Counted from the first letter of the stretch, positions 380-35,944 are shown. The stretch is DNA of 64,000 nucleotides from an uncultured Gemmatimonadales bacterium (GCA_963697435.1 CAVOOB010000002.1:516601-580600), one strand, 5' to 3'. The notes: generated by a model not told the origin, from the sequence alone. Numbers and translations are program-made.

Positions 380-1894
380 CTAGCGACCTCCTCCCGAACT
401 CGTGGTCGACCGCACCCCCGGCAATCCGCCGCCGGTGATGTTGCCGATCCGTTCCTTGAACTCCTTCTGTGATTCGATCAGGCCCGCGCTCGGGAGGATG
501 AGCACCTCATCGCCGAGGGCCAGTCCGCTCATCACCTCGCTGTAGTCGAGGTCGGTCAGCCCGGTCCGGACGCTCACCGGGGTTGGCAGTCCATCCCGCA
601 GGACGAACACGATGTACCGCCCGCCGAACTGGAAGTCGTTGCTTTGGGCGCGCTGTCCGCCGCCCGGCCGGCCTCCACGGCCGCCACCCGCGCCCGCCAT
701 CACCTGGCGGAGAGTAGCCGTCTCGGCGGCGGTCAGCTCCTGCCCGCCCATCCGCTTGGCAAAGATCGCGCGGACCTGGGCCTCGGTGACACCCGCCGGG
801 AGGGGAATCACGCGGCCATCCGGCGTGGTCATGGTGTTGCCGGCCGGCTTTGCCGACGCCGCGCTGTCACGCGGAGCAGTCGCCGCTGCCAGCGTGCTCC
901 GGCCGCCCGCGCTGTCGGACCGTGCGGCTGTCGCGCTATCGTTCGCGGCCAGCATGGCGGGAATGTCGTTCGGATTGAGGCCGAGCACCTCGGCGGCGGA
1001 ATTGACGTCCCGCTGCGTCCGCAGCGACGCGTTGGGAATGGCCAGGACGCTGTCCCGCTGCCCGACGTGAATCTCCACCTCGGAGTTCATGCCGGGGCGG
1101 AGGCGCCCGTCGCGGTTCTGAATCCGGACAATGACCGGGAACATCGTCACGTTCTGCTGCGTCTCCGCCTGGGGCTCGACCTTCAGGACCTCGCCGTCGA
1201 ACGGCGTGTTCGGATAGGCGTCCACCGTGACGGTGGCCCGGAGTCCCGACTTGATCTTGCCGATGTCGGTCTCGTCAACCAGTGTCCGGACTTGCACCAG
1301 GTTGAGGTCGGCCATTTTGAGCAACACCGTCCCGCCCCCCACGTCGCTGGTGGGAGATGAAATGACCTGGCCCCGTTCCACATTCTTCTCGATGATGGTG
1401 CCGGTAATCGGCGCCCGCACGTCGGTGTCCGCCATCCGGATCTTGGCGTTTTCCACCGCGACCTCGGCCCCCACGACCTCCGCCTTGGCGTTCGCGTAGG
1501 CGAGCGCGGCCGCCTCCTGCTCCGTCTGGGTGATGGACTGGGACTTGTAGAGATCGTTGGCCCGGGTGAGCTGGCTGAGTGCGTTCTTGAGCCGGGCCTG
1601 GGCCACCTCGAGCTGTGCTTCCGACTGCGCGAGTGTGTTCCGCGGCGTCCGTTGGTCGACGCGAACCATCAAGGCGCCGCGCTCCACCAGCTGACCGGTC
1701 TCCACGAGCATTTCGAGGATCTCGCCGGAGGCCTTCGACTTCACCTCGACGGTGGTATCCGGCTGGATGACGCCGGCGGCCTGCGCGGACACGACGATAT
1801 TGCGCGGCGCCACCGGCACTGCCTGGTACACCAGTGGCGGCGCTTCCTTCTTGCAGGCCGCGAGGGCCAGGAGGGCGAGGATCAGGGTCCGCAT
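380..1894 (-). CDS. Efflux periplasmic adaptor (HlyD/MacA family) lipoprotein with a large low-complexity insertion
   Basis: Lipobox LLALAAC. Coiled-coil hairpin region (AQSEAQLEVAQARLKNA...) and barrel motifs (APITGTIIEKNVERGQ). It sits between the ABC ATPase and the FtsX permease, with start overlapping the ATPase stop (TAATG). Confidence 0.85.
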   Translation of the reverse strand: MRTLILALLALAACKKEAPPLVYQAVPVAPRNIVVSAQAAGVIQPDTTVEVKSKASGEILEMLVETGQLVERGALMVRVDQRTPRNTLAQSEAQLEVAQARLKNALSQLTRANDLYKSQSITQTEQEAAALAYANAKAEVVGAEVAVENAKIRMADTDVRAPITGTIIEKNVERGQVISSPTSDVGGGTVLLKMADLNLVQVRTLVDETDIGKIKSGLRATVTVDAYPNTPFDGEVLKVEPQAETQQNVTMFPVIVRIQNRDGRLRPGMNSEVEIHVGQRDSVLAIPNASLRTQRDVNSAAEVLGLNPNDIPAMLAANDSATAARSDSAGGRSTLAAATAPRDSAASAKPAGNTMTTPDGRVIPLPAGVTEAQVRAIFAKRMGGQELTAAETATLRQVMAGAGGGRGGRPGGGQRAQSNDFQFGGRYIVFVLRDGLPTPVSVRTGLTDLDYSEVMSGLALGDEVLILPSAGLIESQKEFKERIGNITGGGLPGVRSTTSSGGGR

Positions 1895-2637
1895 TAGCTG
1901 CTCTTCTCCGTCAGGATGTCTTTCTCAATTCGCCCATCCAAGAGGTGGATCTGGCGTGCCGCGTGCGCGGCGATGTCGTGCTCGTGGGTGACCAGCACGA
2001 TCGTCTGGCCTCCTTTGTACAGGTCTTCGAAGAGCGCCATGATTTCGGCGCTCGTGGCCGAGTCAAGGTTGCCCGTCGGTTCGTCGGCCAGGATGATGCT
2101 GGGGTCGTTGACCAGCGCCCGGGCCACGGCCACACGCTGGCGCTGACCACCCGAGAGTTCGTTCGGCCGGTGGTGCATCCGGTCGGCCAGGCCGACCTGT
2201 CGCAGCGCTTCGGTCGCTTTGGCGATCCTGGCCTTGGCGCCGATGCCGGCATACACGAGCGGCAGCTCCACGTTGTGGAGCGCCGTGGCACGGGGGAGGA
2301 GGTTGAAGGTCTGGAAGACGAAGCCGATCTCCTTGTTCCGGATTCGGGCCAGTTCGTCGTCCGCCAGCTCCGAAACACGGAACCCGTTCAGCCAGTACTC
2401 TCCACCAGTGGGGCTGTCCAGGCAGCCGATCATGTTCATCAGCGTGGACTTGCCGGACCCTGACGGGCCCATGATGGCCACGAACTCGTTCTTCCGGATC
2501 GTGACGTCCACGCCGCGCAGGGCACGGACGACTTCGCCGCCCATATCGTACTCGCGCTGGAGATTGCGGGTGACGATCATCGCGTCCCGGGGCACATCGT
2601 CGGGCAGCATGGCCATCCGTTCGGCGGTGGTGCTCAT
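1894..2637 (-). CDS. ABC transporter ATP-binding protein (MacB/LolD-type)
   Basis: Walker [10 protein letters not shown], signature [15 protein letters not shown], Walker [14 protein letters not shown] trimmed the 403-aa track ORF to the internal ATG at 2637 ([11 protein letters not shown]...), because the upstream part is Arg/Pro-rich overlap with tolC. Confidence 0.9.
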
Positions 2638-2645
2638 GGTAGTAC

Positions 2646-3950
2646 TCACAGGGGCCTCCCAACGAGGGCTTCGATCTGGGCTTTGGCGATGAGGTAGTTG
2701 TAGCGGGCCTGGATGACGTCCACTTCCGCCTGGGACAGTGCTTCCTGCGAGCTCAGCACGTCCACGATGGTCGCCGCACCGACCCGGTAGCGTTCCTGGT
2801 TGACGCGCAGGTCCTCCGTAGCGGCCGTCAGGCTTGTGCCGGTGATCTCGATCTGCAGGCGTGCGGCGTCGAGCTCCGCGAGCCGCGCAATCAGCGAGGC
2901 GCCCACCTGACGCCGGGCGTCGGCGGCGGTGGAGGCTGCGGCGTCGGCGTTCGTCGAGGCGTTGACGACGGACTGGTCGCGCTGGAACCCGTTGAAGATC
3001 GGATAGCTGAGGGCCAGCGTCATCGAGCGGCTGTCGAAGAACTGGTAGTCCTGGCTGTCGTTGCCGTTGTAGCTGTATCGCCCCGAGATGCTCAACTGCG
3101 GCCACCAGGCGGCCTTGGCCGCCTTCACGTTGGCGCGTGCGGCGTCGGCCTGGGCCTGCGCGGCCCGCACCCTGGGGGAGTTGTCTTCCGCCTCGGTGCG
3201 GATCATCGCCGTGTCGCCGATCTCGGTCACCACCAGGAAGGCCGAATCGGGGAGCGCACGCACCCGGCCGTCCAGCCCCACGAGCCGGCCAAGGTTCGCT
3301 TCGGACGTGGCCACCGCGGTAAGGGCGGTCAGCAGCTGGAGCCGGGAGTTGCCGACCGTCACCAGCGAGCGGAGGGAGTCAGAGCGCGTCGCGCTGCCCG
3401 CCTGCAGTTTCGCCACGGACACACTGAGCTGTTCTTCCGATCGCTTCAGGCCGGCTTCCCGCACGCGGACCAACTCGTTGGCCGCCAGCGCGCCGAAGAA
3501 CGTCTGCTTGGCGCTCAGCGCGGTCTGGTACTGGGCGTCGATCAGCCCGGCATCGGCGGCCACCTCGGTCGCCTTGGCCGAATTCATCTGGGCCCCACGC
3601 CGGAAGCCGGTGAAGAGGTCGAGCGAGGCACTCGCGCTATTGCTGAAGCTCTGCGCGTACGACTCGCCCGAGATGACCTCGCCCGTGATCTGGTTGACGC
3701 GGGAAGGGCCATTCGAATAGCTGGTCCCGTAGCTGGAGCTCACCGACAACGAGGGAATGAACGCCCCCCAGCTCGTGCGATACTGGGCCGATGCCCGGTC
3801 GACGGCACCCTGCGCCGCGATGACCGAGGGCTGCGCCAGCTGGGCCTTCGTGATGGCGTCCGCCAGCGTGATGGCCGGGGTGGTCGGATCCTGGGCGCTC
3901 AGCAGGGCCGGGAGCGCCACCGAAAGCGCGAGGAGTCTAGCGAGGTGCAT
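2646..3950 (-). CDS. TolC-family outer membrane efflux protein
   Basis: Signal peptide [20 protein letters not shown]. Two repeated OEP-type alpha-helical segments. First structural gene of the efflux operon. Start trimmed to ATG at 3950. Confidence 0.85.
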
Positions 3951-27306: not shown

Positions 27307-28674
27307 TCAACGAATATCCCCCGCCCTTGGCGAATGCGCCAGCGCCAGGCGCGCCTCTTCGCCCGCGGCCGCGGTCAGGTCCTGGTCGCCCATGGCCACG
27401 CCGACCTTCTTCAGGAACGCGTTGGGCGGTTCGCCACCGGCGAATACCCACATCCAGTCGTTCGGTAGTTCGGTCACAGTGCCGCCGACGGAGATCAACA
27501 CCGACTGCTCGCGCACTTCCGTCGGCTGGGATTCGAAGAGCACGCGGAGCTTCTTCCCTTTCACGGCCTCCTGCAGCTTCCTGGCGTTCCGCTCCTTGAT
27601 CCGGCTGAACTCCGCCTTCCGATAGGAGAGGGTCACCTGGTTCCCCTTCTGATACGCCAGGCCGAGCGCAGCCTCCACCGCACTGTCGCCCCCGCCGACC
27701 ACGAGAATCTTCGAATCGACGTAGGCGTCCGCCTCGATCAGGCTGTACATCACCTTGGGCAGTTCCTCTCCCGGGATGTTCAGCTTTCTCGGCGTCCCAC
27801 GGCGGCCGAGGGCCAGGACGACATGCCGGGTCCGGTAGGTGCCGCCCGTGCTCGTGATGCGGAACGTCGCGTCAGCTTCCCGGTCGATCGACTGCACCTT
27901 TTCGCCAGTGCGAATCTCAAGTCCCGCCTCCTTGATCACGGCACTCCAGAATTCAAGCAGCTCCTCCTTGGAAATTTCGAGCTTCTTGAATTTGCCGTGG
28001 AGCGGGAACTCCACCGGACTCGTCATCACCAGCTTTTGCCTGGGATACTTGGCCACCGTCCCCCCGACCGCTTCCTGCTCGAGGGTCACGTAGGTGAGCG
28101 CCCGTTCCACGGCGCGCAGCGACGCGCTCAGCCCACCGGGGCCCGCGCCGACGATGCACACGTCGCGGACGTCGGGCGCGCTGGGTTGTGAGGCGACCCG
28201 GCGGGCGATCGTGTCCATGCATTCGCGGCCCTGGTTCACCGCGTTCTTGATCAGCGCCAGCCCGCCGAGCTCGCCGATGATGAACAGGCCGGGGATGTTG
28301 CTCTCGAATTCCCGCGAGAGCCGCGGCATGTCGGCGCTGATGCTCGGGTTGGCCATCACGATCTCGATGGCGCCGACCGGGCAGACCTCGGCGCAGAGCC
28401 CATGGCCGATGCACTTGTGCCCGTTGATGATGGCGGCCTTGCCCGCGATCACGGCCAGGACATTCCCTTCCGGGCAGACGTCGATACAGGCGCCGCAGCC
28501 GATGCAGTGCGACACGTCGATGTGCGGATGCTGCGCCCGCGGTCCGCTCGAATGAAGCTTGCCGCGTTCGGCGGCGGCCAGCGCCGCCTGCTCCCGGCGG
28601 TGGGTCTTCCGGATGTGGAGGACCAGCGGGCCGATGAGGAAGAGGCCAAAGACGACGTAAATCAGCAGGTCCAT
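27307..28674 (-). CDS. Membrane-anchored 2x[4Fe-4S] ferredoxin domain fused to FAD/NAD(P)-binding pyridine-nucleotide-disulfide-oxidoreductase-like domain
   Basis: N-terminal TM (MDLLIYVVFGLFLIGPLVLHI) followed by RKTHRRE (positive-inside). CIGCGACIDVCP and CIGHGLCAEVCP clusters. Dinucleotide folds VCIVGAGPGGLSAS and ILVVGGGDSAVEAAL. ATG at 28674 is preferred over the TTG at 28716 used by the track. Confidence 0.85.
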   Translation of the reverse strand: MDLLIYVVFGLFLIGPLVLHIRKTHRREQAALAAAERGKLHSSGPRAQHPHIDVSHCIGCGACIDVCPEGNVLAVIAGKAAIINGHKCIGHGLCAEVCPVGAIEIVMANPSISADMPRLSREFESNIPGLFIIGELGGLALIKNAVNQGRECMDTIARRVASQPSAPDVRDVCIVGAGPGGLSASLRAVERALTYVTLEQEAVGGTVAKYPRQKLVMTSPVEFPLHGKFKKLEISKEELLEFWSAVIKEAGLEIRTGEKVQSIDREADATFRITSTGGTYRTRHVVLALGRRGTPRKLNIPGEELPKVMYSLIEADAYVDSKILVVGGGDSAVEAALGLAYQKGNQVTLSYRKAEFSRIKERNARKLQEAVKGKKLRVLFESQPTEVREQSVLISVGGTVTELPNDWMWVFAGGEPPNAFLKKVGVAMGDQDLTAAAGEEARLALAHSPRAGDIR

Positions 28675-28919
28675 TGTCACTCGGAAGTGTGGGTCGATCG
28701 GCGATGCAGGGTGCAAGTGGGACGGGCAGACTGCACGTGAGGCGCGTCACGCTCGGCCGACGGATGGTCCGGCGGCGCCCGAGTCGATGCACCGTTTGCG
28801 CCTTTCCTCCGGCCGAGCTCGGCCGGGAACAGCGGCGGGGGACCCGGCCAGCCCCCGCGGTACCGCATTCCGCGTTTCGCGACTGAAACATGCCGATCCA
28901 TCCGTAACGAATCGTTGCA

Positions 28920-29068: not shown

Positions 29069-30115
29069 ATGACCCCCCACCAGATGGGGGGCGGGGGCGC
29101 GTCGGCTGGCACCCACTCGACCGAAAGCTCGATGTCCACTTCGAATTTGGCTCCCGCCCCTCGCGTTGCTGCCCTGACCGAACGCCCCGTCGCGCCATCG
29201 GCGCCCGTACGCGCACATGTCCCCCGGCGCCCAGTGCCGAAGGCGAAGCGGTCGAAGGCGATGACCGCCGCCCTCGTCTTCGGCGCGGGGCTGGTGGCGT
29301 TGAATCTATTCGGAATGCGGTACTACCTGCTGCCTCGCGCCGAGCAGGTTCGCGACCCGCTCCATGCCTGGCTGCGTCCCTCAGGGTACCTCGGGCAGAC
29401 GGCGGGCGTCCTCGCGCTCCTGATCTTTCTCTTCCTCTGGTTGTACCCGCTTCGGAAGAAGTTCCGGTGGCTCGCCTTCACCGGCGCCATCTCCAAGTGG
29501 CTGAACGTACACGTGCTGGCCGCGCTCGGCCTCCCCCTCCTGGTGGCGGCGCACGCGACCTGGCAGTTCGGGGGGGTCATCGGCCTTGGATTCTGGTCGA
29601 TGATGCTGGTCTGGTTGAGCGGCATCGTCGGTCGATACATCTACGCCAGGATTCCGCGGGGCCAGGCCGGCGTCGAGCTCACGATCGATGAGATCAGCAC
29701 CCAGCGGCAGGAGCTGCTGAACGAGATCGCCGAGCTGTCGGGACTCGAGGCCAAGGAAGTCGAGGCGGTGCTGGCGCCTGACACGGCGCCGACGGTGGGC
29801 CTTGGGTTGTGGCAGACCATGCGCCGGATGGTTGCCGACGACCTCGGTCGGCGACGCGCGGCCGCTCGCCTGCGCCGCCAGATCAAGTTGCGCCGCCCGA
29901 TGCAACGGCGCAGCGACGCCGCAGTGCTGAAGGAAGTCCTTCGCCTCGCCAACCGTGAAATGGCCATGGTACAGCAGGCTCGCATGCTCGGCGCCACGCA
30001 GAACATCCTCCGGTTCTGGCATGTGGCCCACCGCCCTCTGGCGGTGACGGCGCTGGTGGCGGTCATCATCCACGTCATGGTGGTCGTGTCGTTGGGCGCC
30101 ACGTGGTTCCGGTAG
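29069..30115 (+). CDS. Polytopic membrane protein with two H-x13-H pairs in TM helices (candidate di-haem b-type transmembrane electron carrier)
   Basis: About 5 TM. H148-x13-H162 (NVHVLAALGLPLLVAAH) and H321-x13-H335 (HRPLAVTALVAVIIH). A roughly 120-aa charged helical cytoplasmic insert sits between TM4 and TM5. The start is uncertain (ATG 29069, 29132 or 29261). The 3' end overlaps the next gene. Confidence 0.7.
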   Translation: MTPHQMGGGGASAGTHSTESSMSTSNLAPAPRVAALTERPVAPSAPVRAHVPRRPVPKAKRSKAMTAALVFGAGLVALNLFGMRYYLLPRAEQVRDPLHAWLRPSGYLGQTAGVLALLIFLFLWLYPLRKKFRWLAFTGAISKWLNVHVLAALGLPLLVAAHATWQFGGVIGLGFWSMMLVWLSGIVGRYIYARIPRGQAGVELTIDEISTQRQELLNEIAELSGLEAKEVEAVLAPDTAPTVGLGLWQTMRRMVADDLGRRRAAARLRRQIKLRRPMQRRSDAAVLKEVLRLANREMAMVQQARMLGATQNILRFWHVAHRPLAVTALVAVIIHVMVVVSLGATWFR

Positions 30116-32157
30116 GCGAGGGCACGACCGGTGTGTTCCGCGGACTCGTTCGCGCATGCCTCCTGGCCCTCGGCTGGGTGGTGCTGATGTCCACGCCGCT
30201 GGCGGGACAGATCTCGCCGGGCCCGCTCGCAGCCGCGCACGCGACGCTCGAGGGACCGACCCAGTGCACCACCTGCCACGGCAGCCGGCGGGACGCCATG
30301 ACCGGCCAGTGCGCGGCCTGTCACAAGGATATTGGCCGATTGCTCGACCAGGGGCGGGGCTACCACGGCAGCGCCGAAGTGAAGGGCACACCCTGCGCCT
30401 CCTGTCATCCGGATCACGCCGGGAAAGGCTTCGAGATGGTGGAATGGCCGGATGGCGGCATGAAGAGCTTCGACCACAAACGCGCTGGGTGGGCGCTTGC
30501 GTTGAAGCACGCCGAGGCCACGTGCGCGGATTGTCACACCGACGAGTTCCAGGTGCCGGGAGTGAGGGATCTCTCCGTTCGAACGACCGGGCAGGGCTAT
30601 ACCGGTCTGGACCCCACCTGTACCAGTTGCCACGAGGACATCCATCGCGGGGCGCTCAAGCAGAACTGCACGGTATGCCACGATGCCGGTTCGTGGTCCG
30701 TCACCCCGGGGTTCGACCACGACACGACGGCGTATGCGCTCACTGCCAGGCACGCCGATGTGAAGTGCGACGACTGTCACCTCGACGCTCGGCTCTCACC
30801 CCGGAGCGACGGGAAGGGGCACCTGATCCCCGTGTACAAGCCGGTGTCGTTCGAGTCCTGCGCCAGCTGCCACACCGACCCGCACAGTGGGGGGCTGGGC
30901 CCGAAGTGCGCCGACTGCCATAGCACGCGCGGGTTCCAGGTCATCGACAAGAACCGGTTCGACCATGACAGAACCAAGTATCCGCTGCGCGGCAAGCACG
31001 TGACCACGGCCTGCGCCAGGTGCCACAAGGACTTCTCGACGCCGGCCCTGAAGACGCCGAAGTTCGCCACTTGCGTCGAGTGCCACACGGACGCCCACAA
31101 CGGGACCGCCACTCTCGCCGGCAGGCGGGTCGATTGCGCCTCGTGCCACTCGGTCAACGGATTCGCCCTGTCGACGTATACGACCGCGAGCCATGCCACG
31201 ACCCCGTACCCGCTTGAGGGCAAGCACCTGACGGTGAAGTGCGCCGCCTGCCATAGCCGGAGCACCGCGACGACTGCCGCGAAGACGCTCGGCAGTGCCA
31301 GGGTCGTGATACGGCCGAAGTACGCACAGTGCACGGACTGCCATGCTGACGATCATGGCGGCCAACGAATGGCGAGCACCAACAAGGGCGAGTGCGCCGC
31401 CTGCCACCGTGTGACAGGGTGGACTCCGAGCACCTTCGACAGTGCCGCACACGCACAGACGAATCTGGCCCTCGATGGTCGCCACCAGGAGATCGCCTGC
31501 GTGGCCTGTCACGGCCTCGCGCGCGCCGAGCTCCCGCCGATGACCGGGACGGCGACGATCGGCAAGGCTGGATTCCGGTTCCGGATTACCGAGACGGAGT
31601 GCGCCGCCTGCCACACCGATCCGCACCGTGGCCGATTCTCCGACGGGGGCTCCGGGGTCACGCCAATGGGTTGCCCCGCCTGCCATGGCATGCGGGCCTT
31701 CCGGCCGTCGACCACCGACATCGCGGCACACGCCCGATTCGAGTTTCCACTGGAGGGTGCGCACCGTGCCACCCCCTGCTCAGCCTGTCACGACGAACTG
31801 ACGCGCCCTGCCTCCGCCGCCCGGTCCACGCTGGTCCGGGGCTCGGGCGGGTTTGCCGACCTCCGGTTCGAGGCAACGCGGGAATGCGCCGCTTGCCACG
31901 AGACGCCGCACGGCGATCAGTTCGCCGCCTGGGACGCCCGGGGAGGCTGCGCCGCTTGCCACACGGTGGCCGCCTTCGTCCCGGCGGCCAACTTCGATCA
32001 CGACACCGACGCCTCGTTTTCGACCAGGGGCGCCCACGAACGGGTGCCGTGTGCGCGGTGCCATGTGCGTGATGCGGCCGCCCTACCCACGGAACCGTTG
32101 CGCTATCGCCCGTTGTCGGGGCGCTGCGAGGCCTGCCACGGCAAGGAGTCACCATGA
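30103..32157 (+). CDS. Secreted multihaem cytochrome c with 23 CXXCH motifs
   Basis: I counted 23 CXXCH in the translation. Signal peptide (ACLLALGWVVLMSTPLAGQ), no lipobox. Six recognisable three-haem modules CxxCHxDxHxG ... CxxCH ... FDH..T.y.L.G.H....CxxCH. The start is GTG at 30103 or GTG at 30133. Confidence 0.9.
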   Translation: MVPVGEGTTGVFRGLVRACLLALGWVVLMSTPLAGQISPGPLAAAHATLEGPTQCTTCHGSRRDAMTGQCAACHKDIGRLLDQGRGYHGSAEVKGTPCASCHPDHAGKGFEMVEWPDGGMKSFDHKRAGWALALKHAEATCADCHTDEFQVPGVRDLSVRTTGQGYTGLDPTCTSCHEDIHRGALKQNCTVCHDAGSWSVTPGFDHDTTAYALTARHADVKCDDCHLDARLSPRSDGKGHLIPVYKPVSFESCASCHTDPHSGGLGPKCADCHSTRGFQVIDKNRFDHDRTKYPLRGKHVTTACARCHKDFSTPALKTPKFATCVECHTDAHNGTATLAGRRVDCASCHSVNGFALSTYTTASHATTPYPLEGKHLTVKCAACHSRSTATTAAKTLGSARVVIRPKYAQCTDCHADDHGGQRMASTNKGECAACHRVTGWTPSTFDSAAHAQTNLALDGRHQEIACVACHGLARAELPPMTGTATIGKAGFRFRITETECAACHTDPHRGRFSDGGSGVTPMGCPACHGMRAFRPSTTDIAAHARFEFPLEGAHRATPCSACHDELTRPASAARSTLVRGSGGFADLRFEATRECAACHETPHGDQFAAWDARGGCAACHTVAAFVPAANFDHDTDASFSTRGAHERVPCARCHVRDAAALPTEPLRYRPLSGRCEACHGKESP

Positions 32158-33902
32158 GACGCCTGATCTGGCTTCCACTCCTGGCGCTGTCGCTCGCGTT
32201 GGTCGCGGGCGACCTCGCCGCGCAGGAACGGACCACCTCACCGCACGGCGACCTCCAGACCCAGTGCACGGTCTGCCACGGGCCGGATAGCTGGACGGCG
32301 CTTCAGATCAGCAGCCAGTTCGATCACGGGAAACTCGGCTTCCCGTTGACCGGCGCGCACGGCGCGACCACGTGCCGGGCATGTCATACCTCGCTGGACT
32401 TCAAGCTGGCGAGCTCGGACTGCACCGTGTGTCACAGCGACAACCATCGTGGCGAGTTGGGCCCGAACTGTGCCCGGTGTCACACGACGCGCACCTTTGT
32501 CGACCGGGACCTCATGGTTCCGGCGCATCGGTTGACGCGCTTCCCCCTGTCCGGCGGCCACCTGGCGGTCGAGTGCACGCAGTGCCATGCACCGGGCGTT
32601 GGTGGGCAGATGCAGTTCGTAGGGACCTCCACGGCGTGCTTCTCCTGTCACCAGCCCGATTACAACGCTGCGGCGAATCACGTCACGTCGAGCTTCCCCA
32701 CGAGCTGTGAGGGGTGCCACTCGACGGTGGCCTGGAACGCGGCAAACCTCGGGGCGGGGAACCACCCGACGTCGCCCATCGCCCTCACCGGCGTGCACAG
32801 CAGCAACCTGGTGACCTGCGCCCAGTGCCATACGTCGCAGCCCTACACCGCGGTCGCGCGCACCTGTGACGGTTGCCACCACCAGGAGTACCTGTCCACC
32901 AGCGATCCGAACCACGCCGCCTCGGGGTTCTCGACCGACTGTGTGTCGTGTCACCAGCCGGTCGCCAACTGGGCCGGTGCCAAGTTCAATCACCCCTCGG
33001 CGCCGATCGCCCTGACGGGTCCCCACAGCGTCAACCTGGTGGAGTGCACGCAGTGCCACACCAGCCAGCCGTACTCCTCGGTGAGGCAGACCTGCGACGG
33101 CTGCCACCATGCGGAGTACGTGGCCACGACCGACCCGAGCCATGTCGCGGCGGGATACAGCACCGACTGCGCTTCCTGCCACCAGGTCGTCGCCAACTGG
33201 GTGGGTGCCACGGCCAACCACCCGACCACCCCGATCGCGCTCACGGGCGTGCATAGCGCCAACCTCATCCCGTGCACGCAGTGTCATACCACCTCACCCT
33301 ATTCAACGGTGAAGCAGACCTGTGACGGCTGCCACCACGCAGAGTACGTGGCCACTACCGACCCAAATCACGTCTCGGCAGGGTATGGCATCGACTGCGC
33401 CTCCTGCCACCAGCCGGTGGCGAACTGGGCAGGGGCGAACGCCAACCATCCCACCACACCGATCGCGCTGACGGGCGTGCACAGCGCCACTATGGTCACG
33501 TGCACCCAGTGCCACACGACTTCCCCGTACTCGAGCGTGCAGCGCACCTGCGACGGATGCCATCATCCCGAATACGTGCAGCCGACCGACCCCAACCACG
33601 TCATGGCCAACTTCTCGACCACCTGCACGGCCTGCCATGGGTTGGTAGCGAACTGGGCAGGGGCGAAGTTCACCGCGCACGATGGGAGCGTGTCGCAGTT
33701 CCGGATCTACAGCGGCAAGCATAACAACCGGTGGAGCAACTGCGCGGAGTGCCACGCTGCCGGACAGTCGTATGCCGCCACGCCGGCGTTGCTCTGCCTG
33801 AATTGCCACGCGAAAGTCCAGACGGACAAGCACCGCGGGAAGAACTACACGCCCAGCGACTGCGTGCGGTCGGGCTGCCACGCGAACGGATCCAACCCGT
33901 GA
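32154..33902 (+). CDS. Secreted multihaem cytochrome c with 21 CXXCH plus one C-terminal CX4CH motif
   Basis: ATGA overlap with the upstream cytochrome gene. Signal peptide MRRLIWLPLLALSLALVAGDLAAQ, no lipobox. 21 CXXCH counted, plus CVRSGCH near the C-terminus. Recurrent CDGCHH. Confidence 0.9.
   Translation: MRRLIWLPLLALSLALVAGDLAAQERTTSPHGDLQTQCTVCHGPDSWTALQISSQFDHGKLGFPLTGAHGATTCRACHTSLDFKLASSDCTVCHSDNHRGELGPNCARCHTTRTFVDRDLMVPAHRLTRFPLSGGHLAVECTQCHAPGVGGQMQFVGTSTACFSCHQPDYNAAANHVTSSFPTSCEGCHSTVAWNAANLGAGNHPTSPIALTGVHSSNLVTCAQCHTSQPYTAVARTCDGCHHQEYLSTSDPNHAASGFSTDCVSCHQPVANWAGAKFNHPSAPIALTGPHSVNLVECTQCHTSQPYSSVRQTCDGCHHAEYVATTDPSHVAAGYSTDCASCHQVVANWVGATANHPTTPIALTGVHSANLIPCTQCHTTSPYSTVKQTCDGCHHAEYVATTDPNHVSAGYGIDCASCHQPVANWAGANANHPTTPIALTGVHSATMVTCTQCHTTSPYSSVQRTCDGCHHPEYVQPTDPNHVMANFSTTCTACHGLVANWAGAKFTAHDGSVSQFRIYSGKHNNRWSNCAECHAAGQSYAATPALLCLNCHAKVQTDKHRGKNYTPSDCVRSGCHANGSNP
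32760..33671 (+). repeat. Four in-frame tandem repeats of 228 bp (76 aa, three CXXCH each) inside the second cytochrome gene
   Basis: Units start at 32760, 32988, 33216 and 33444, each beginning NHP(T/S)xPIALTG.HS...C(A/T)QCHT..PY....(R/Q)TCDGCHH.EY....DP.H......(T/I)(D/T)C.(S/A)CH..VANW.GA. A degenerate half unit precedes them (CFSCHQPDYNAAANH...CEGCH). Confidence 0.9.
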
Positions 33903-35944
33903 GCCCACGCGCGAGGCGCCTGACAGGGCTGCTCGGAATGGCATTGCTGGCGGCGTGCACCGCCGGCGAGGCCCGCGCCCAGGACTCGACCGAGGTGGTC
34001 GCGCTCTACATGAAGGAAGGGGCGGTTATCCGCGGGCGTATCCTCGCGGACAACGGCCCGAACGGTATTCGGATCCGGAGCCAGCAGTCGGGCGCGACGT
34101 TCGTGGTTGCGGCCGCGCAGATCGACAGCGTGGTACGGCCCAAAGCGTCCGTATCGCCATCGACGCCCGTGCCCGAGCCGATGGTACCTGCCTCGCAAGC
34201 ACTGGACACTCCGGCACCACCTCCGAGTCCTGCGGCGGCCACCGCGGTGGACACCGCACCCATGACGATCGATGTGGCCTCGCCGACCACAGTTATGGAA
34301 GGACTCGCGCCGCCACCCAGTGCGGTGCCGGCGCAAGACATGATCGCGCCAGTCGTCATCGACACCGCCCCGCCCGACACGGCCGCGCACCGGACGACCG
34401 TCACTTTCATGTCCGGCGCCGAGATCTACATCGGGGCCGGCCGGCTTGACGGGTTGCTGGAGGGCTCGGAGGTCTCGGTCATGCAGGGAGACGACGTCGT
34501 CGGGATACTGCGTGTGAAATACGTCGCCTCCCACCGCTCCGCGTGCGAGGTTGTGTCGGGGGCGACCGGAATCGCGCTGGGGGATGTGATTCAGTTTCGC
34601 CGGCAGATGGCGTCCCCCGAAATGCTCTCCGCGTCGTCGATGTCCGGGCCGCCCCGCCCGCGGCGGATGAGCGGGCCCGGGCTCCACGGCCGGTTCGGGA
34701 CCCGATACCTGCGAGCGACCACGACGACGATGGCCGGCGGACAGGAACTGGGAAGCAACGGCTTCGACCAGCCCTCGCTCGACGCCCGCATCAACGGCAT
34801 CGGCCTCGGCGGCACACCGCTCGGGGTGGCGCTCGATCTGCGGACCCGTCAGACGACCACGACCTCGGCTGGCCGCACGGAGGTGGATGGACATACGCGG
34901 GTTTATCAGGCCGTCATGTACTGGAATCAGCCTGGCGCAGGCTTCCGCGCGGCCGCGGGCCGGCAGTACCTGACGGCGGTCAGTTCCATCGGCCTTCTGG
35001 ACGGCGCGTTGCTCGAGTTGAATGGGGGAAGAGTGTCGGTCGGTGCGTTCGCCGGATTCGAGCCTGACATCGCCACACTCGGGTTCTCCAGCACGGTCCA
35101 CGACTTCGGCCTCTACGCGAGCGTGCACAACCGGCCAGGGACGTCGACGGTGACGTCGGCGACCATTGGTGCCGTCGGGTCCTATGAAGGAGGAGATGCG
35201 CGCCGGGAGTGGGGCATCGCGCAGTTCAACATGAACAACCGGTACGTCTCGCTCTACCTGCTGCAGGAGCTCGATTATTACCGGCCGTGGAAACTCGCGG
35301 GGCCGAACGCCGAGGAAAGCGCCATTTCGGCGACGAGCCAGTTTGCGAACCTCTCCTTCCGGGCGACCCGCTGGCTGGCGATCAATGGTACCTATGACAA
35401 ACGCCGCAGCGTGCCGACCCTTCGCGACTTCACCAATCCGGAGACCGAATTCGATGACACCTACCGCCAGGGCTACGGAGGTGGTGTGCAGGTGACCGGC
35501 CGACAGGTGTACGGCGGTGGCGACTGGCGGCGGAGCACCGGTGGAAGTTCGGGCGGCGCCAATTCCTTCACCACGACCCTCGGCGTCAATCGCATCACCA
35601 AGTTCAACGTCGGACTGTCGGCCCGGGCGACCTGGTACCAGAATGATGTCTTCTCCGTCGACACCACCGCCGCGGTGCTGCAGACCTCCGGGCAACTCTA
35701 CTCCGGGCGGATGAGCCTCGACCCCTTCGGACCGATTCATCTTGATCTGAGCGCGGGCCTCCGCCAGGAGGACAACCCGATCGCGCTGGGGCTGCAGAAG
35801 TCGACCTGGTACGGCGTTGACATGGATCTGAACGTCGGGCGCGCCTGGTTCATCTCAGTCTCAGCGCTCCGACAGAACGATACTGCCAACCCCGGGACCA
35901 GCACCCTGACGCAGATCTACGGCGGGGTGACCTGGCGGTTCTAG
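33899..35944 (+). CDS. Putative outer-membrane beta-barrel protein with N-terminal domain and Pro/Ala-rich linker
   Basis: GTG at 33899 overlaps the cytochrome stop (GTGA). Signal sequence with possible lipobox LAAC or SPase I site ARA-QD. Pro/Ala-rich segment about aa 80-165. The C-terminal roughly 430 aa show alternating hydrophobic/polar strand pattern with Gly/Tyr/Asn-rich turns, ending ...IYGGVTWRF (terminal aromatic). Confidence 0.75.
   Translation: MSPRARRLTGLLGMALLAACTAGEARAQDSTEVVALYMKEGAVIRGRILADNGPNGIRIRSQQSGATFVVAAAQIDSVVRPKASVSPSTPVPEPMVPASQALDTPAPPPSPAAATAVDTAPMTIDVASPTTVMEGLAPPPSAVPAQDMIAPVVIDTAPPDTAAHRTTVTFMSGAEIYIGAGRLDGLLEGSEVSVMQGDDVVGILRVKYVASHRSACEVVSGATGIALGDVIQFRRQMASPEMLSASSMSGPPRPRRMSGPGLHGRFGTRYLRATTTTMAGGQELGSNGFDQPSLDARINGIGLGGTPLGVALDLRTRQTTTTSAGRTEVDGHTRVYQAVMYWNQPGAGFRAAAGRQYLTAVSSIGLLDGALLELNGGRVSVGAFAGFEPDIATLGFSSTVHDFGLYASVHNRPGTSTVTSATIGAVGSYEGGDARREWGIAQFNMNNRYVSLYLLQELDYYRPWKLAGPNAEESAISATSQFANLSFRATRWLAINGTYDKRRSVPTLRDFTNPETEFDDTYRQGYGGGVQVTGRQVYGGGDWRRSTGGSSGGANSFTTTLGVNRITKFNVGLSARATWYQNDVFSVDTTAAVLQTSGQLYSGRMSLDPFGPIHLDLSAGLRQEDNPIALGLQKSTWYGVDMDLNVGRAWFISVSALRQNDTANPGTSTLTQIYGGVTWRF

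Follow-up and report, generated by a model that had tools for sequence, protein, structure and literature searches.

The 64,000-nucleotide (nt) stretch of DNA analysed here, hereafter the window, comes from an uncultured Gemmatimonadales bacterium (GCA_963697435.1 CAVOOB010000002.1:516601-580600) and carries a gene at 33899-35944 whose product is predicted to form an outer-membrane beta-barrel. The gene directly follows those of two large multihaem cytochromes, which we call cytA and cytB. We put at about 60% the probability that this barrel is the porin of an undescribed porin-cytochrome electron conduit, found mainly in Gemmatimonadota. The barrel family is itself unnamed and undescribed and has a domain architecture of its own, laid out in the window protein as follows (aa, amino acids; AF2, AlphaFold2).

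33899-35944, + strand: barrel-protein gene, 681 aa by translation of the open reading frame (ORF); GTG start, TGA stop at 35942-35944
33899-33979, + strand: signal peptide, aa 1-27, MSPRARRLTGLLGMALLAACTAGEARA, with predicted cleavage before Q; AxA/Q conserved in the family
33989-34138, + strand: type-1 N-terminal domain, aa 31-80, a small five-strand beta domain (AF2)
34139-34378, + strand: disordered tether, aa 81-160, rich in Pro, Ala, Thr and Val
34295-34318, + strand: tether motif MEGLAPPP, aa 133-140; [ED][GA]L[ASD]PPP in relatives' linkers
34379-34606, + strand: domain 2, aa 161-236, a six-stranded small beta-barrel (AF2, Foldseek)
34607-34681, + strand: hinge, aa 237-261, modelled at low confidence
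34682-35941, + strand: predicted 22-strand beta-barrel, aa 262-681 (AF2/DSSP, Foldseek, amphipathic faces)
35399-35470, + strand: loop L7 between strands 13 and 14, aa 501-524, KRRSVPTLRDFTNPETEFDDTYRQ; at 24 residues the longest loop
35915-35941, + strand: C-terminal strand IYGGVTWRF, resembling a beta-signal, with terminal Phe

A predicted 22-strand outer-membrane barrel

The full-length AF2 model, built on an alignment of 66 sequences (mean predicted local distance difference test score, pLDDT, 77.8), places 22 strands, all antiparallel, between aa 262 and 680, most of them at pLDDT 83-95. Along most of these strands a hydrophobic and variable face alternates with a polar or charged and conserved one (mean hydropathy +0.90 versus -1.05), as would be expected if one side of the barrel faced lipid and the other lined a lumen under functional constraint. 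The initial annotation, made from the window's sequence, had described about 430 aa of amphipathic strand-like sequence ending in YGGVTWRF and had proposed an outer-membrane barrel, and the model and structure searches bear out both statements. Foldseek against the PDB returned, among the matches listed, outer-membrane barrels throughout (E 1e-9 to 1e-6), including the PapC and FimD ushers, Campylobacter MOMP, general porins, CymA, AlgE, Occ channels, chitoporin, OmpM and SlpA. The TM-scores were 0.2-0.3 relative to the query and MtrB was not among the top 50; as far as the model goes, the fold class is clear and there is no specific relative. We also considered a TonB-dependent transporter, with which the 22 strands agree, but rejected it, there being no Pfam match and no such protein among the 50 Foldseek matches listed.

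The C-terminus of the protein is strongly constrained. Y674, W679, R680 and F681 each reach at least 90% conservation among the 66 homologues, and x-[WYF]-R-F is retained in distant members. A conserved C-terminus that ends in an aromatic residue fits the beta-signal of the beta-barrel assembly machinery (BAM). The predicted barrel combines this aromatic terminus with a signal peptide and an even count of antiparallel amphipathic strands, the features expected of a BAM-inserted protein.

Periplasmic turns in the model are 2-8 residues long and extracellular loops, assigned by strand parity, 2-15 residues, except for the loop between strands 13 and 14. This loop, L7, should be extracellular by the same parity rule and overlies the longest conserved stretch of the family, DNRRNVRLYRDxxTPETEFDDxYRQG, which is kept at 30% identity. 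For 22 strands and a shear number of about 24, established formulae give a C-alpha radius of about 20 Å and, from this, a calculated lumen of roughly 28-30 Å, which would in principle be wide enough for a thin multihaem chain.

The family was not represented in the domain and structure databases searched by sequence. Neither Pfam nor NCBIfam gave a match to the whole protein at E<=0.1 or to the barrel segment at E<=10, and a family profile run over the whole set of PDB sequences picked up nothing but a TetR protein by chance (E=0.76). A word-indexed search recovered 156 homologues, all unnamed or called "hypothetical", whose stated organisms were Gemmatimonadota metagenome-assembled genomes (MAGs). 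When the core (aa 158-681) was searched exhaustively with HMMER, the family grew to 973 clusters (50% identity, E<=1e-3), 207 of them at E<=1e-30, which rules out a chance ORF. Most family members are 510-560 aa long and the ancestral architecture is therefore taken to be signal peptide, domain 2 and barrel. A genome scan, which covered one genome per GTDB species with narrow search patterns and may have missed other taxa, found 65 loci, all in Gemmatimonadales or in Gemmatimonadota MAGs; one distant family member carries the label Acidobacteria. The window itself derives from a freshwater sediment metagenome, and tblastn of the protein's domains against it found no paralogue.

Conserved linkage to multihaem cytochromes

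The barrel gene is the last of four overlapping genes on the + strand, beside which a fifth gene lies in the opposite orientation.

30103-32157, + strand: cytA, a 684-aa secreted cytochrome with 23 CxxCH motifs; its stop overlaps the cytB start (ATGA)
32154-33902, + strand: cytB, a 582-aa secreted cytochrome with 21 CxxCH motifs and one CxxxxCH
29069-30115, + strand: membrane protein, 348 aa, about five hydrophobic helices; first gene of the operon
27307-28716, - strand: FeS-flavoprotein (iron-sulphur flavoprotein), divergent and membrane-anchored; Pfam Fer4 and Pyr_redox_3/2

A partnership with the cytochromes had been proposed from the window, and comparison across the family gives it strong support. 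Wherever a related locus has sufficient flanking DNA, a gene with at least three CxxCH motifs flanks the barrel gene, and this holds down to members of 33-36% identity (L068-L070, one MAG labelled Acidobacteria being among such members), in which multihaem cytochromes precede the barrel. A predicted barrel gene contiguous with secreted multihaem cytochrome genes across genomes is what is expected of a porin-cytochrome cluster. The usual order in the roughly 50 loci with sufficient flanks is the same as in the window, with the FeS-flavoprotein on the opposite strand followed by the membrane protein, cytA, cytB and the barrel, while in one subgroup (L025-L027, L030) the membrane protein is followed by a cytB-like gene, the barrel and a cytA-like gene. 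Six loci (L023, L025, L027, L030, L033, L052) hold a second cytochrome-plus-barrel module in tandem; for example, at 9647-16062 of L025 an N-extended barrel and a core-type barrel of 540 aa have cytochromes of 20 and 13 haems between them.

The genes are also tightly spaced. The GTG start codon of the barrel gene (33899-33901) and the TGA stop codon of cytB (33900-33902) overlap with two bases in common, as had been noted at the outset, and the overlap recurs in relatives: barrel start and cytochrome stop overlap by 4 nt in 19 sequences (18 loci and the window), another 13 have a 1-nt overlap, and in the remaining loci the gap is mostly 2-29 nt. The linkage of the two genes is thus conserved across the family, and so, probably, is their translational coupling.

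The two cytochromes differ in how their size varies. cytA has 23 CxxCH motifs in 43 related loci, a number equal to that in the window, whereas cytB ranges from 8 to 36 haems across related loci, often in steps of three. The window copy of cytB contains a tandem repeat at 32862-33602, with a unit of 228 bp (76 aa, three haems) in 3.2 copies at 75% match. Both cytochromes have 28-30 aa per haem and Pfam domains of c7/c3 type. GSU1996 is a linear c7-polymer "nanowire" cytochrome, and by analogy cytA and cytB resemble cytochromes of this class. One speculative reading in accord with the data is that cytA, being of fixed length, spans the periplasm as a ruler and that the variable cytB crosses the outer membrane or reaches past it.

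Additional redox genes were seen further upstream in some loci. A 16-haem cytochrome gene lies a few kb upstream in L001 (1-2926), L034, L038-L040, L049, L054, L060 and L062 (~1400-3700), and the upstream region of L001 also contains a molybdopterin oxidoreductase and CcmE.

Candidate electron-input proteins

The membrane protein that opens the operon had no Pfam, NCBIfam or PDB match. Among 49 sequences, two pairs of histidines, H148/H162 and H321/H335, are 100% conserved, the members of each pair lying 14 residues apart in predicted helices, and H99 and H318 are 98% conserved. A 14-residue spacing of histidines is typical of bis-His ligation of two stacked b haems in the ferric-reductase, cytochrome b561 and MsrQ families. 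The conserved pairs suggest that the membrane protein is a new di-haem b-type transmembrane electron carrier, a similarity of ligand pattern rather than shown homology to those families.

Besides a transmembrane helix at its N-terminus, the FeS-flavoprotein has a ferredoxin domain with 2x[4Fe-4S] and a pyridine-nucleotide-disulphide oxidoreductase domain of FAD/NAD(P)H type; this flavoprotein domain resembles thioredoxin reductase or YpdA. Its gene adjoins the cluster in about 50 loci and stands in line within the operon in L068. From its domains and position, the protein could be the cytoplasmic NAD(P)H entry point of the conduit.

Gene start and signal peptide

In the database the protein is annotated (P0001, 668 aa) from an internal ATG at 33938, 39 nt downstream of the GTG. 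Translation from that codon gives MALLAAC..., in which the signal peptide is truncated and the charged n-region lost. The closest homologue (P0002, 80% identity) has the N-terminus MSPR..., matching the GTG-initiated product. Given that the N-termini of homologues and the conserved start/stop overlap agree, we accept GTG 33899 as the start.

The N-terminal helix at aa 3-21 of the AF2 model corresponds to the signal peptide. The signal region reads MSPRARRLTGLLGMALLAAC-TAGEARA/QDST and, as the initial annotation had pointed out in calling it ambiguous, it contains both a lipobox-like LAAC and a signal peptidase I (SPase I) site, ARA/Q. Neither P0002 (LLTAGVAREARAQDS), for all its 80% identity, nor the majority of relatives has the cysteine of the former, Cys20; an AxA/Q or AQ/x site, by contrast, follows the hydrophobic core throughout the family. 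Because AxA/Q is conserved and Cys20 is not, the comparison favours cleavage by SPase I after Ala27 over lipidation, and we regard this as the probable route. A lipoprotein is less likely for the same reason: LAAC fits the lipobox pattern, but most relatives lack its cysteine. The whole protein contains only two cysteines, C20 in the signal peptide and C216, and no CxxCH motif.

Domain 2 and the hinge

Domain 2 is found in essentially every family member. A second small domain had been placed at about aa 165-215; AF2 supports the domain but makes it longer, with strands spanning aa 163-234 at pLDDT 81-89 in the full-length model and 81-94 with the shorter model described below included. The best Foldseek match of domain 2 was the flagellar protein FlgT (3w1e, E=8.5e-4, 17% identity; also 8z5n), followed by the six-stranded N-terminal beta-barrels of F1/V1-ATPase subunits (root-mean-square deviation 2.1-2.9 Å over about 70 residues). 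The Pfam model FlgT_C (PF16538) gave no match in the window protein itself. It scored 18-26 bits, under the cut-off of 27, on domain 2 of four relatives (P0146, P0332, P0165, P0174), and 30.2 bits, above the same cut-off, on an extra N-terminal copy in P0060. As modelled, domain 2 is a small closed beta-barrel of the type used for protein-protein packing in periplasmic and ring assemblies.

Cys216 (34544-34546), within a strand of domain 2, is the sole cysteine of the mature protein and is at least 90% conserved, with Thr in its place in P0020, P0022, P0024 and P0043. We looked for a partner for it in the two cytochromes, and neither has an unpaired cysteine outside its signal peptide. Domain 2 is joined to the barrel by the hinge, which falls below pLDDT 50 at aa 243-258. 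The motif RPRRxSGPGLHGR (aa 253-265; 34655-34693) runs from the hinge into the first barrel strand, and R256, G261, H263, G264 and R265 within it are invariant (alignment A1).

An interchangeable N-terminal module on a disordered tether

The window protein carries a further domain ahead of domain 2, the small N-terminal domain that had been delimited as aa 30-80. AF2 gives it five short strands (aa 33-79, pLDDT 86-96), and in a separate model of aa 27-244 both this type-1 domain and domain 2 exceed pLDDT 90. The type-1 domain has the motif YLKEGxxIRGxILxxxGxxGIxIxSxxSGxxFxVxxxxIDSVV and is confined to a close clade with core identity of at least about 54%. No Pfam family matched it, AMIN (PF11741) failing to match aa 27-81 even at E<=10, and a profile of the 55-aa domain searched against 5.8 billion proteins returned nothing at E<=1e-3.

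Between the type-1 domain and domain 2 lies a tether that is 25% Pro and 19% Ala, compared with 5.9% Pro and 13% Ala in five neighbouring genes. The Pro/Ala/Thr-rich linker first drawn at about aa 80-165 thus needed only a slight shift of its boundaries, and aa 84-153 are modelled at pLDDT <50. In relatives with the type-1 domain the entire N-terminal extension (signal peptide, domain and tether) measures 122-287 aa, and the motif [ED][GA]L[ASD]PPP is kept where their linkers are otherwise unalignable. MEGLAPPP, its counterpart in the window, may mediate interactions as a linear motif.

Other branches of the family hold a different domain at the same position, likewise on a Pro/Ala-rich tether. 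A second copy of domain 2 is present in P0060, P0062, P0065, P0068, P0072, P0076-P0080 and P0133, and AMIN (PF11741) in P0310, P0201, P0332, P0165 and P0174, at 27-55 bits against a cut-off of 20.5. Judged from these sequences, the N-terminal module is one of three interchangeable types: type-1, AMIN or a second FlgT_C-like copy. The initial annotation had thought the tether unusual for a porin partner; the tethered domain is real, but it is no one-off oddity, since it recurs in modular form across the family. AMIN domains bind peptidoglycan in AmiC and PilQ. Because AMIN occupies the equivalent position in relatives, we propose an anchoring role, and the arrangement suggests that the N-terminal module fastens the barrel to the cell wall, or else to a different partner in the periplasm. 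We also considered whether the length of the N-terminal extension follows the haem number of cytB and rejected this, as L031 combines 36 haems with an N-terminus of only 56 aa.

A model for the probable conduit and its alternatives

These data allow us to propose a mechanism for the conduit. The barrel protein would be exported by Sec, as its signal peptide indicates, and cleaved by SPase I after ARA, in keeping with the conservation of that site. Its C-terminal 420 aa would be inserted by BAM as the predicted 22-strand barrel, a route to which the terminal WRF points, and the start/stop overlap, itself observed and conserved, may hold barrel and cytB in fixed proportion through translational coupling. 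By analogy with MtrAB and PioAB, the charged and conserved lumen together with loop L7 would sheathe part of cytB or form a passage, with haems reaching the cell surface. Domain 2, tethered at the periplasmic mouth, may act as a protein-docking module, and the type-1 domain on its 80-aa tether would anchor the complex to the cell wall or a periplasmic partner, as AMIN in relatives suggests. Electrons could then run from NAD(P)H through the FeS-flavoprotein and the di-haem-b-like membrane protein to cytA, an order suggested by the conserved gene cluster.

A more far-reaching version of this mechanism is tentative, and we hold it doubtful. The five-gene cluster would here be a complete NAD(P)H-fed, quinone-bypassing wire across the whole envelope, with a 23-haem ruler, a variable cytB that changes by three-haem repeat units and passes through the barrel, and swappable wall anchors. 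If this were true, it would be a bacterial, split and envelope-spanning analogue of electron export by NOX and ferric reductases, and many soil and sediment Gemmatimonadota would be electroactive.

Several observations weigh against the conduit. No lipobox is present in cytA or cytB, both of which have SPase I-like N-termini, and an extracellular partner is not evident. MtrC and OmcB are surface lipoprotein cytochromes; an outer-surface lipoprotein cytochrome is also lacking in the PioAB and MtoAB systems. No homology to characterised extracellular-electron-transfer porins was detected with Pfam, NCBIfam or PDB sequence profiles, none of the 65 loci comes from a cultured strain, and a search of RNA runs found no expression data. 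Mean-field direct-coupling analysis of 367 family sequences (effective number 240) gave no usable signal for contacts between strands 1 and 22, gap and fragment artefacts being dominant. Domain 2 or loop L7 could also occlude the pore. Lastly, the most conserved element of the protein is the 24-aa loop L7, which might be a pore constriction as in substrate-specific channels.

This last point leads to an alternative that we consider unlikely, in which the barrel is a specific pore that admits a soluble acceptor or donor, such as a metal chelate, a flavin, a humic-type quinone or a sulfur or nitrogen species, to periplasmic cytochromes, with no protein threaded through it. L7 could then be a constriction loop like L3 of porins, and the plain SPase I-type signal peptides of both cytochromes would be in order, as would the fold matches to AlgE, CymA, chitoporin and the OccD/OccK porins (OpdP, OpdQ, OpdR). 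However, it is not obvious why a diffusion pore should require 1:1 translational coupling, a docking domain or a tethered anchor, and cytochromes of 21-36 haems are far longer than the reduction of periplasmic solutes needs. Every predicted loop except L7 is also short, suggesting an open barrel.

We regard as quite improbable a pore for export or assembly, through which cytB or a cytB polymer would be translocated in the manner of an usher or secretin, the barrel serving as no permanent insulating sheath. The PapC and FimD ushers are the top fold matches, ushers likewise have periplasmic beta domains N-terminal to a large barrel, AMIN occurs in relatives and is also N-terminal in PilQ secretins, and the length of cytB varies freely between 8 and 36 haems. 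Nothing, however, suggests that cytB polymerises, and the resemblance to ushers is distant: their TM-scores are low (0.25-0.40), the model has 22 strands rather than 24, no Usher Pfam match was obtained and a chaperone-like gene is absent from the cluster. On these grounds we also rejected membership of the usher family (PF00577; 24 strands, plug and chaperone gene). Very improbable is a purely structural role, in which an OmpA- or PilQ-like protein would tie the outer membrane to the wall and share the operon without contributing to electron transfer. In its favour are the tether of the N-terminal domain and the AMIN found at the equivalent position in relatives. Against it, most members, at 520-550 aa, lack an N-terminal anchor yet keep their cytochrome neighbours, the cytochrome linkage is universal over wide divergence and the conserved side of the strands is the one that faces the lumen.

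Significance of the proposed conduit

Gemmatimonadota are abundant in soils and sediments and have been little studied for extracellular electron transfer. If the conduit is real, the phylum would gain a possible role in the redox cycling of iron, manganese and humic substances, and a new porin family, 22-stranded and equipped with a docking domain of its own and an exchangeable anchor on a tether, would join the few known outer-membrane electron routes. Porin-cytochrome clusters divergent from Mtr are known already, and specialists in extracellular electron transfer would find the general idea unsurprising. Distinctive here are the unnamed barrel family and its architecture, the unusually large cytochromes and the unusual proposed input module of flavoprotein and b-type membrane protein. 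Three features stand out: an anchor that is both modular and tethered, a haem number that stays at 23 in one cytochrome but varies from 8 to 36 in the other, and the confinement of all recovered genome loci to Gemmatimonadota. The cluster also offers parts for expression, namely the barrel, the 23-haem and 21-haem cytochromes, the candidate b-type membrane cytochrome and the FeS-flavoprotein, with which questions of wire length and anchoring could be approached.

Comparison with known systems

Porin-cytochrome clusters divergent from Mtr have been described from genomes and metagenomes (PMC5566968, PMC11475568, bioRxiv 10.64898/2026.05.27.727921, PMC13264449), and a ferredoxin-NADP+ reductase gene has been reported near some of them (PMC13264449). 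Full-text literature searches found no description of a Gemmatimonadota porin-cytochrome cluster of the present kind.

Individual parts of the protein recall other systems. Domain 2 is like the C-terminal domain of FlgT, from the periplasmic H-ring of the flagellum, at the level of fold only. PilQ secretins also have a small periplasmic beta domain on a flexible linker before an outer-membrane channel, and relatives of the window protein carry a true AMIN; unlike in PilQ, the N-terminal domain in the window is not AMIN, and the channel is a predicted monomeric 22-strand barrel, not a secretin ring.

The Geobacter porin-cytochrome (Pcc) systems, OmaB-OmbB-OmcB and the Ext clusters, resemble the window cluster in having a porin of about 20 strands, without similarity to Mtr, beside periplasmic multihaem cytochromes. 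They differ, in that the window has no evident surface lipoprotein cytochrome and that the cytochromes of the window and its related loci, with 23 and 8-36 haems, far exceed theirs in size. The window barrel also bears a FlgT_C-like domain and a modular tethered N-terminal domain, and its host phylum is Gemmatimonadota; the comparison with OmbB and the Ext porins is one of described features.

The initial annotation did not recognise the barrel as MtrB-like, and we likewise reject membership of the MtrB family: PF11854, TIGR03509 and PDB sequences gave no match, the N-terminal CxxC is absent and the predicted strands number 22 against 26 in MtrB/PioB (26-28 as the family criterion). Unlike MtrB/PioB, the window barrel also has extra periplasmic domains and a tether. 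Its partners, with 21-23 haems of c7/c3 type, are unlike the decahaem MtrA, the DmsE/decahaem model scoring 17 bits against a cut-off of 192. The likeness to the MtrB/PioB/MtoB porins of MtrCAB, PioAB and MtoAB (6R2Q) lies elsewhere: there, as in the window, the barrel gene shares an operon with the multihaem cytochrome gene that immediately precedes it, the barrel ends in a BAM-type aromatic residue and its presumed role is to sheathe a cytochrome.

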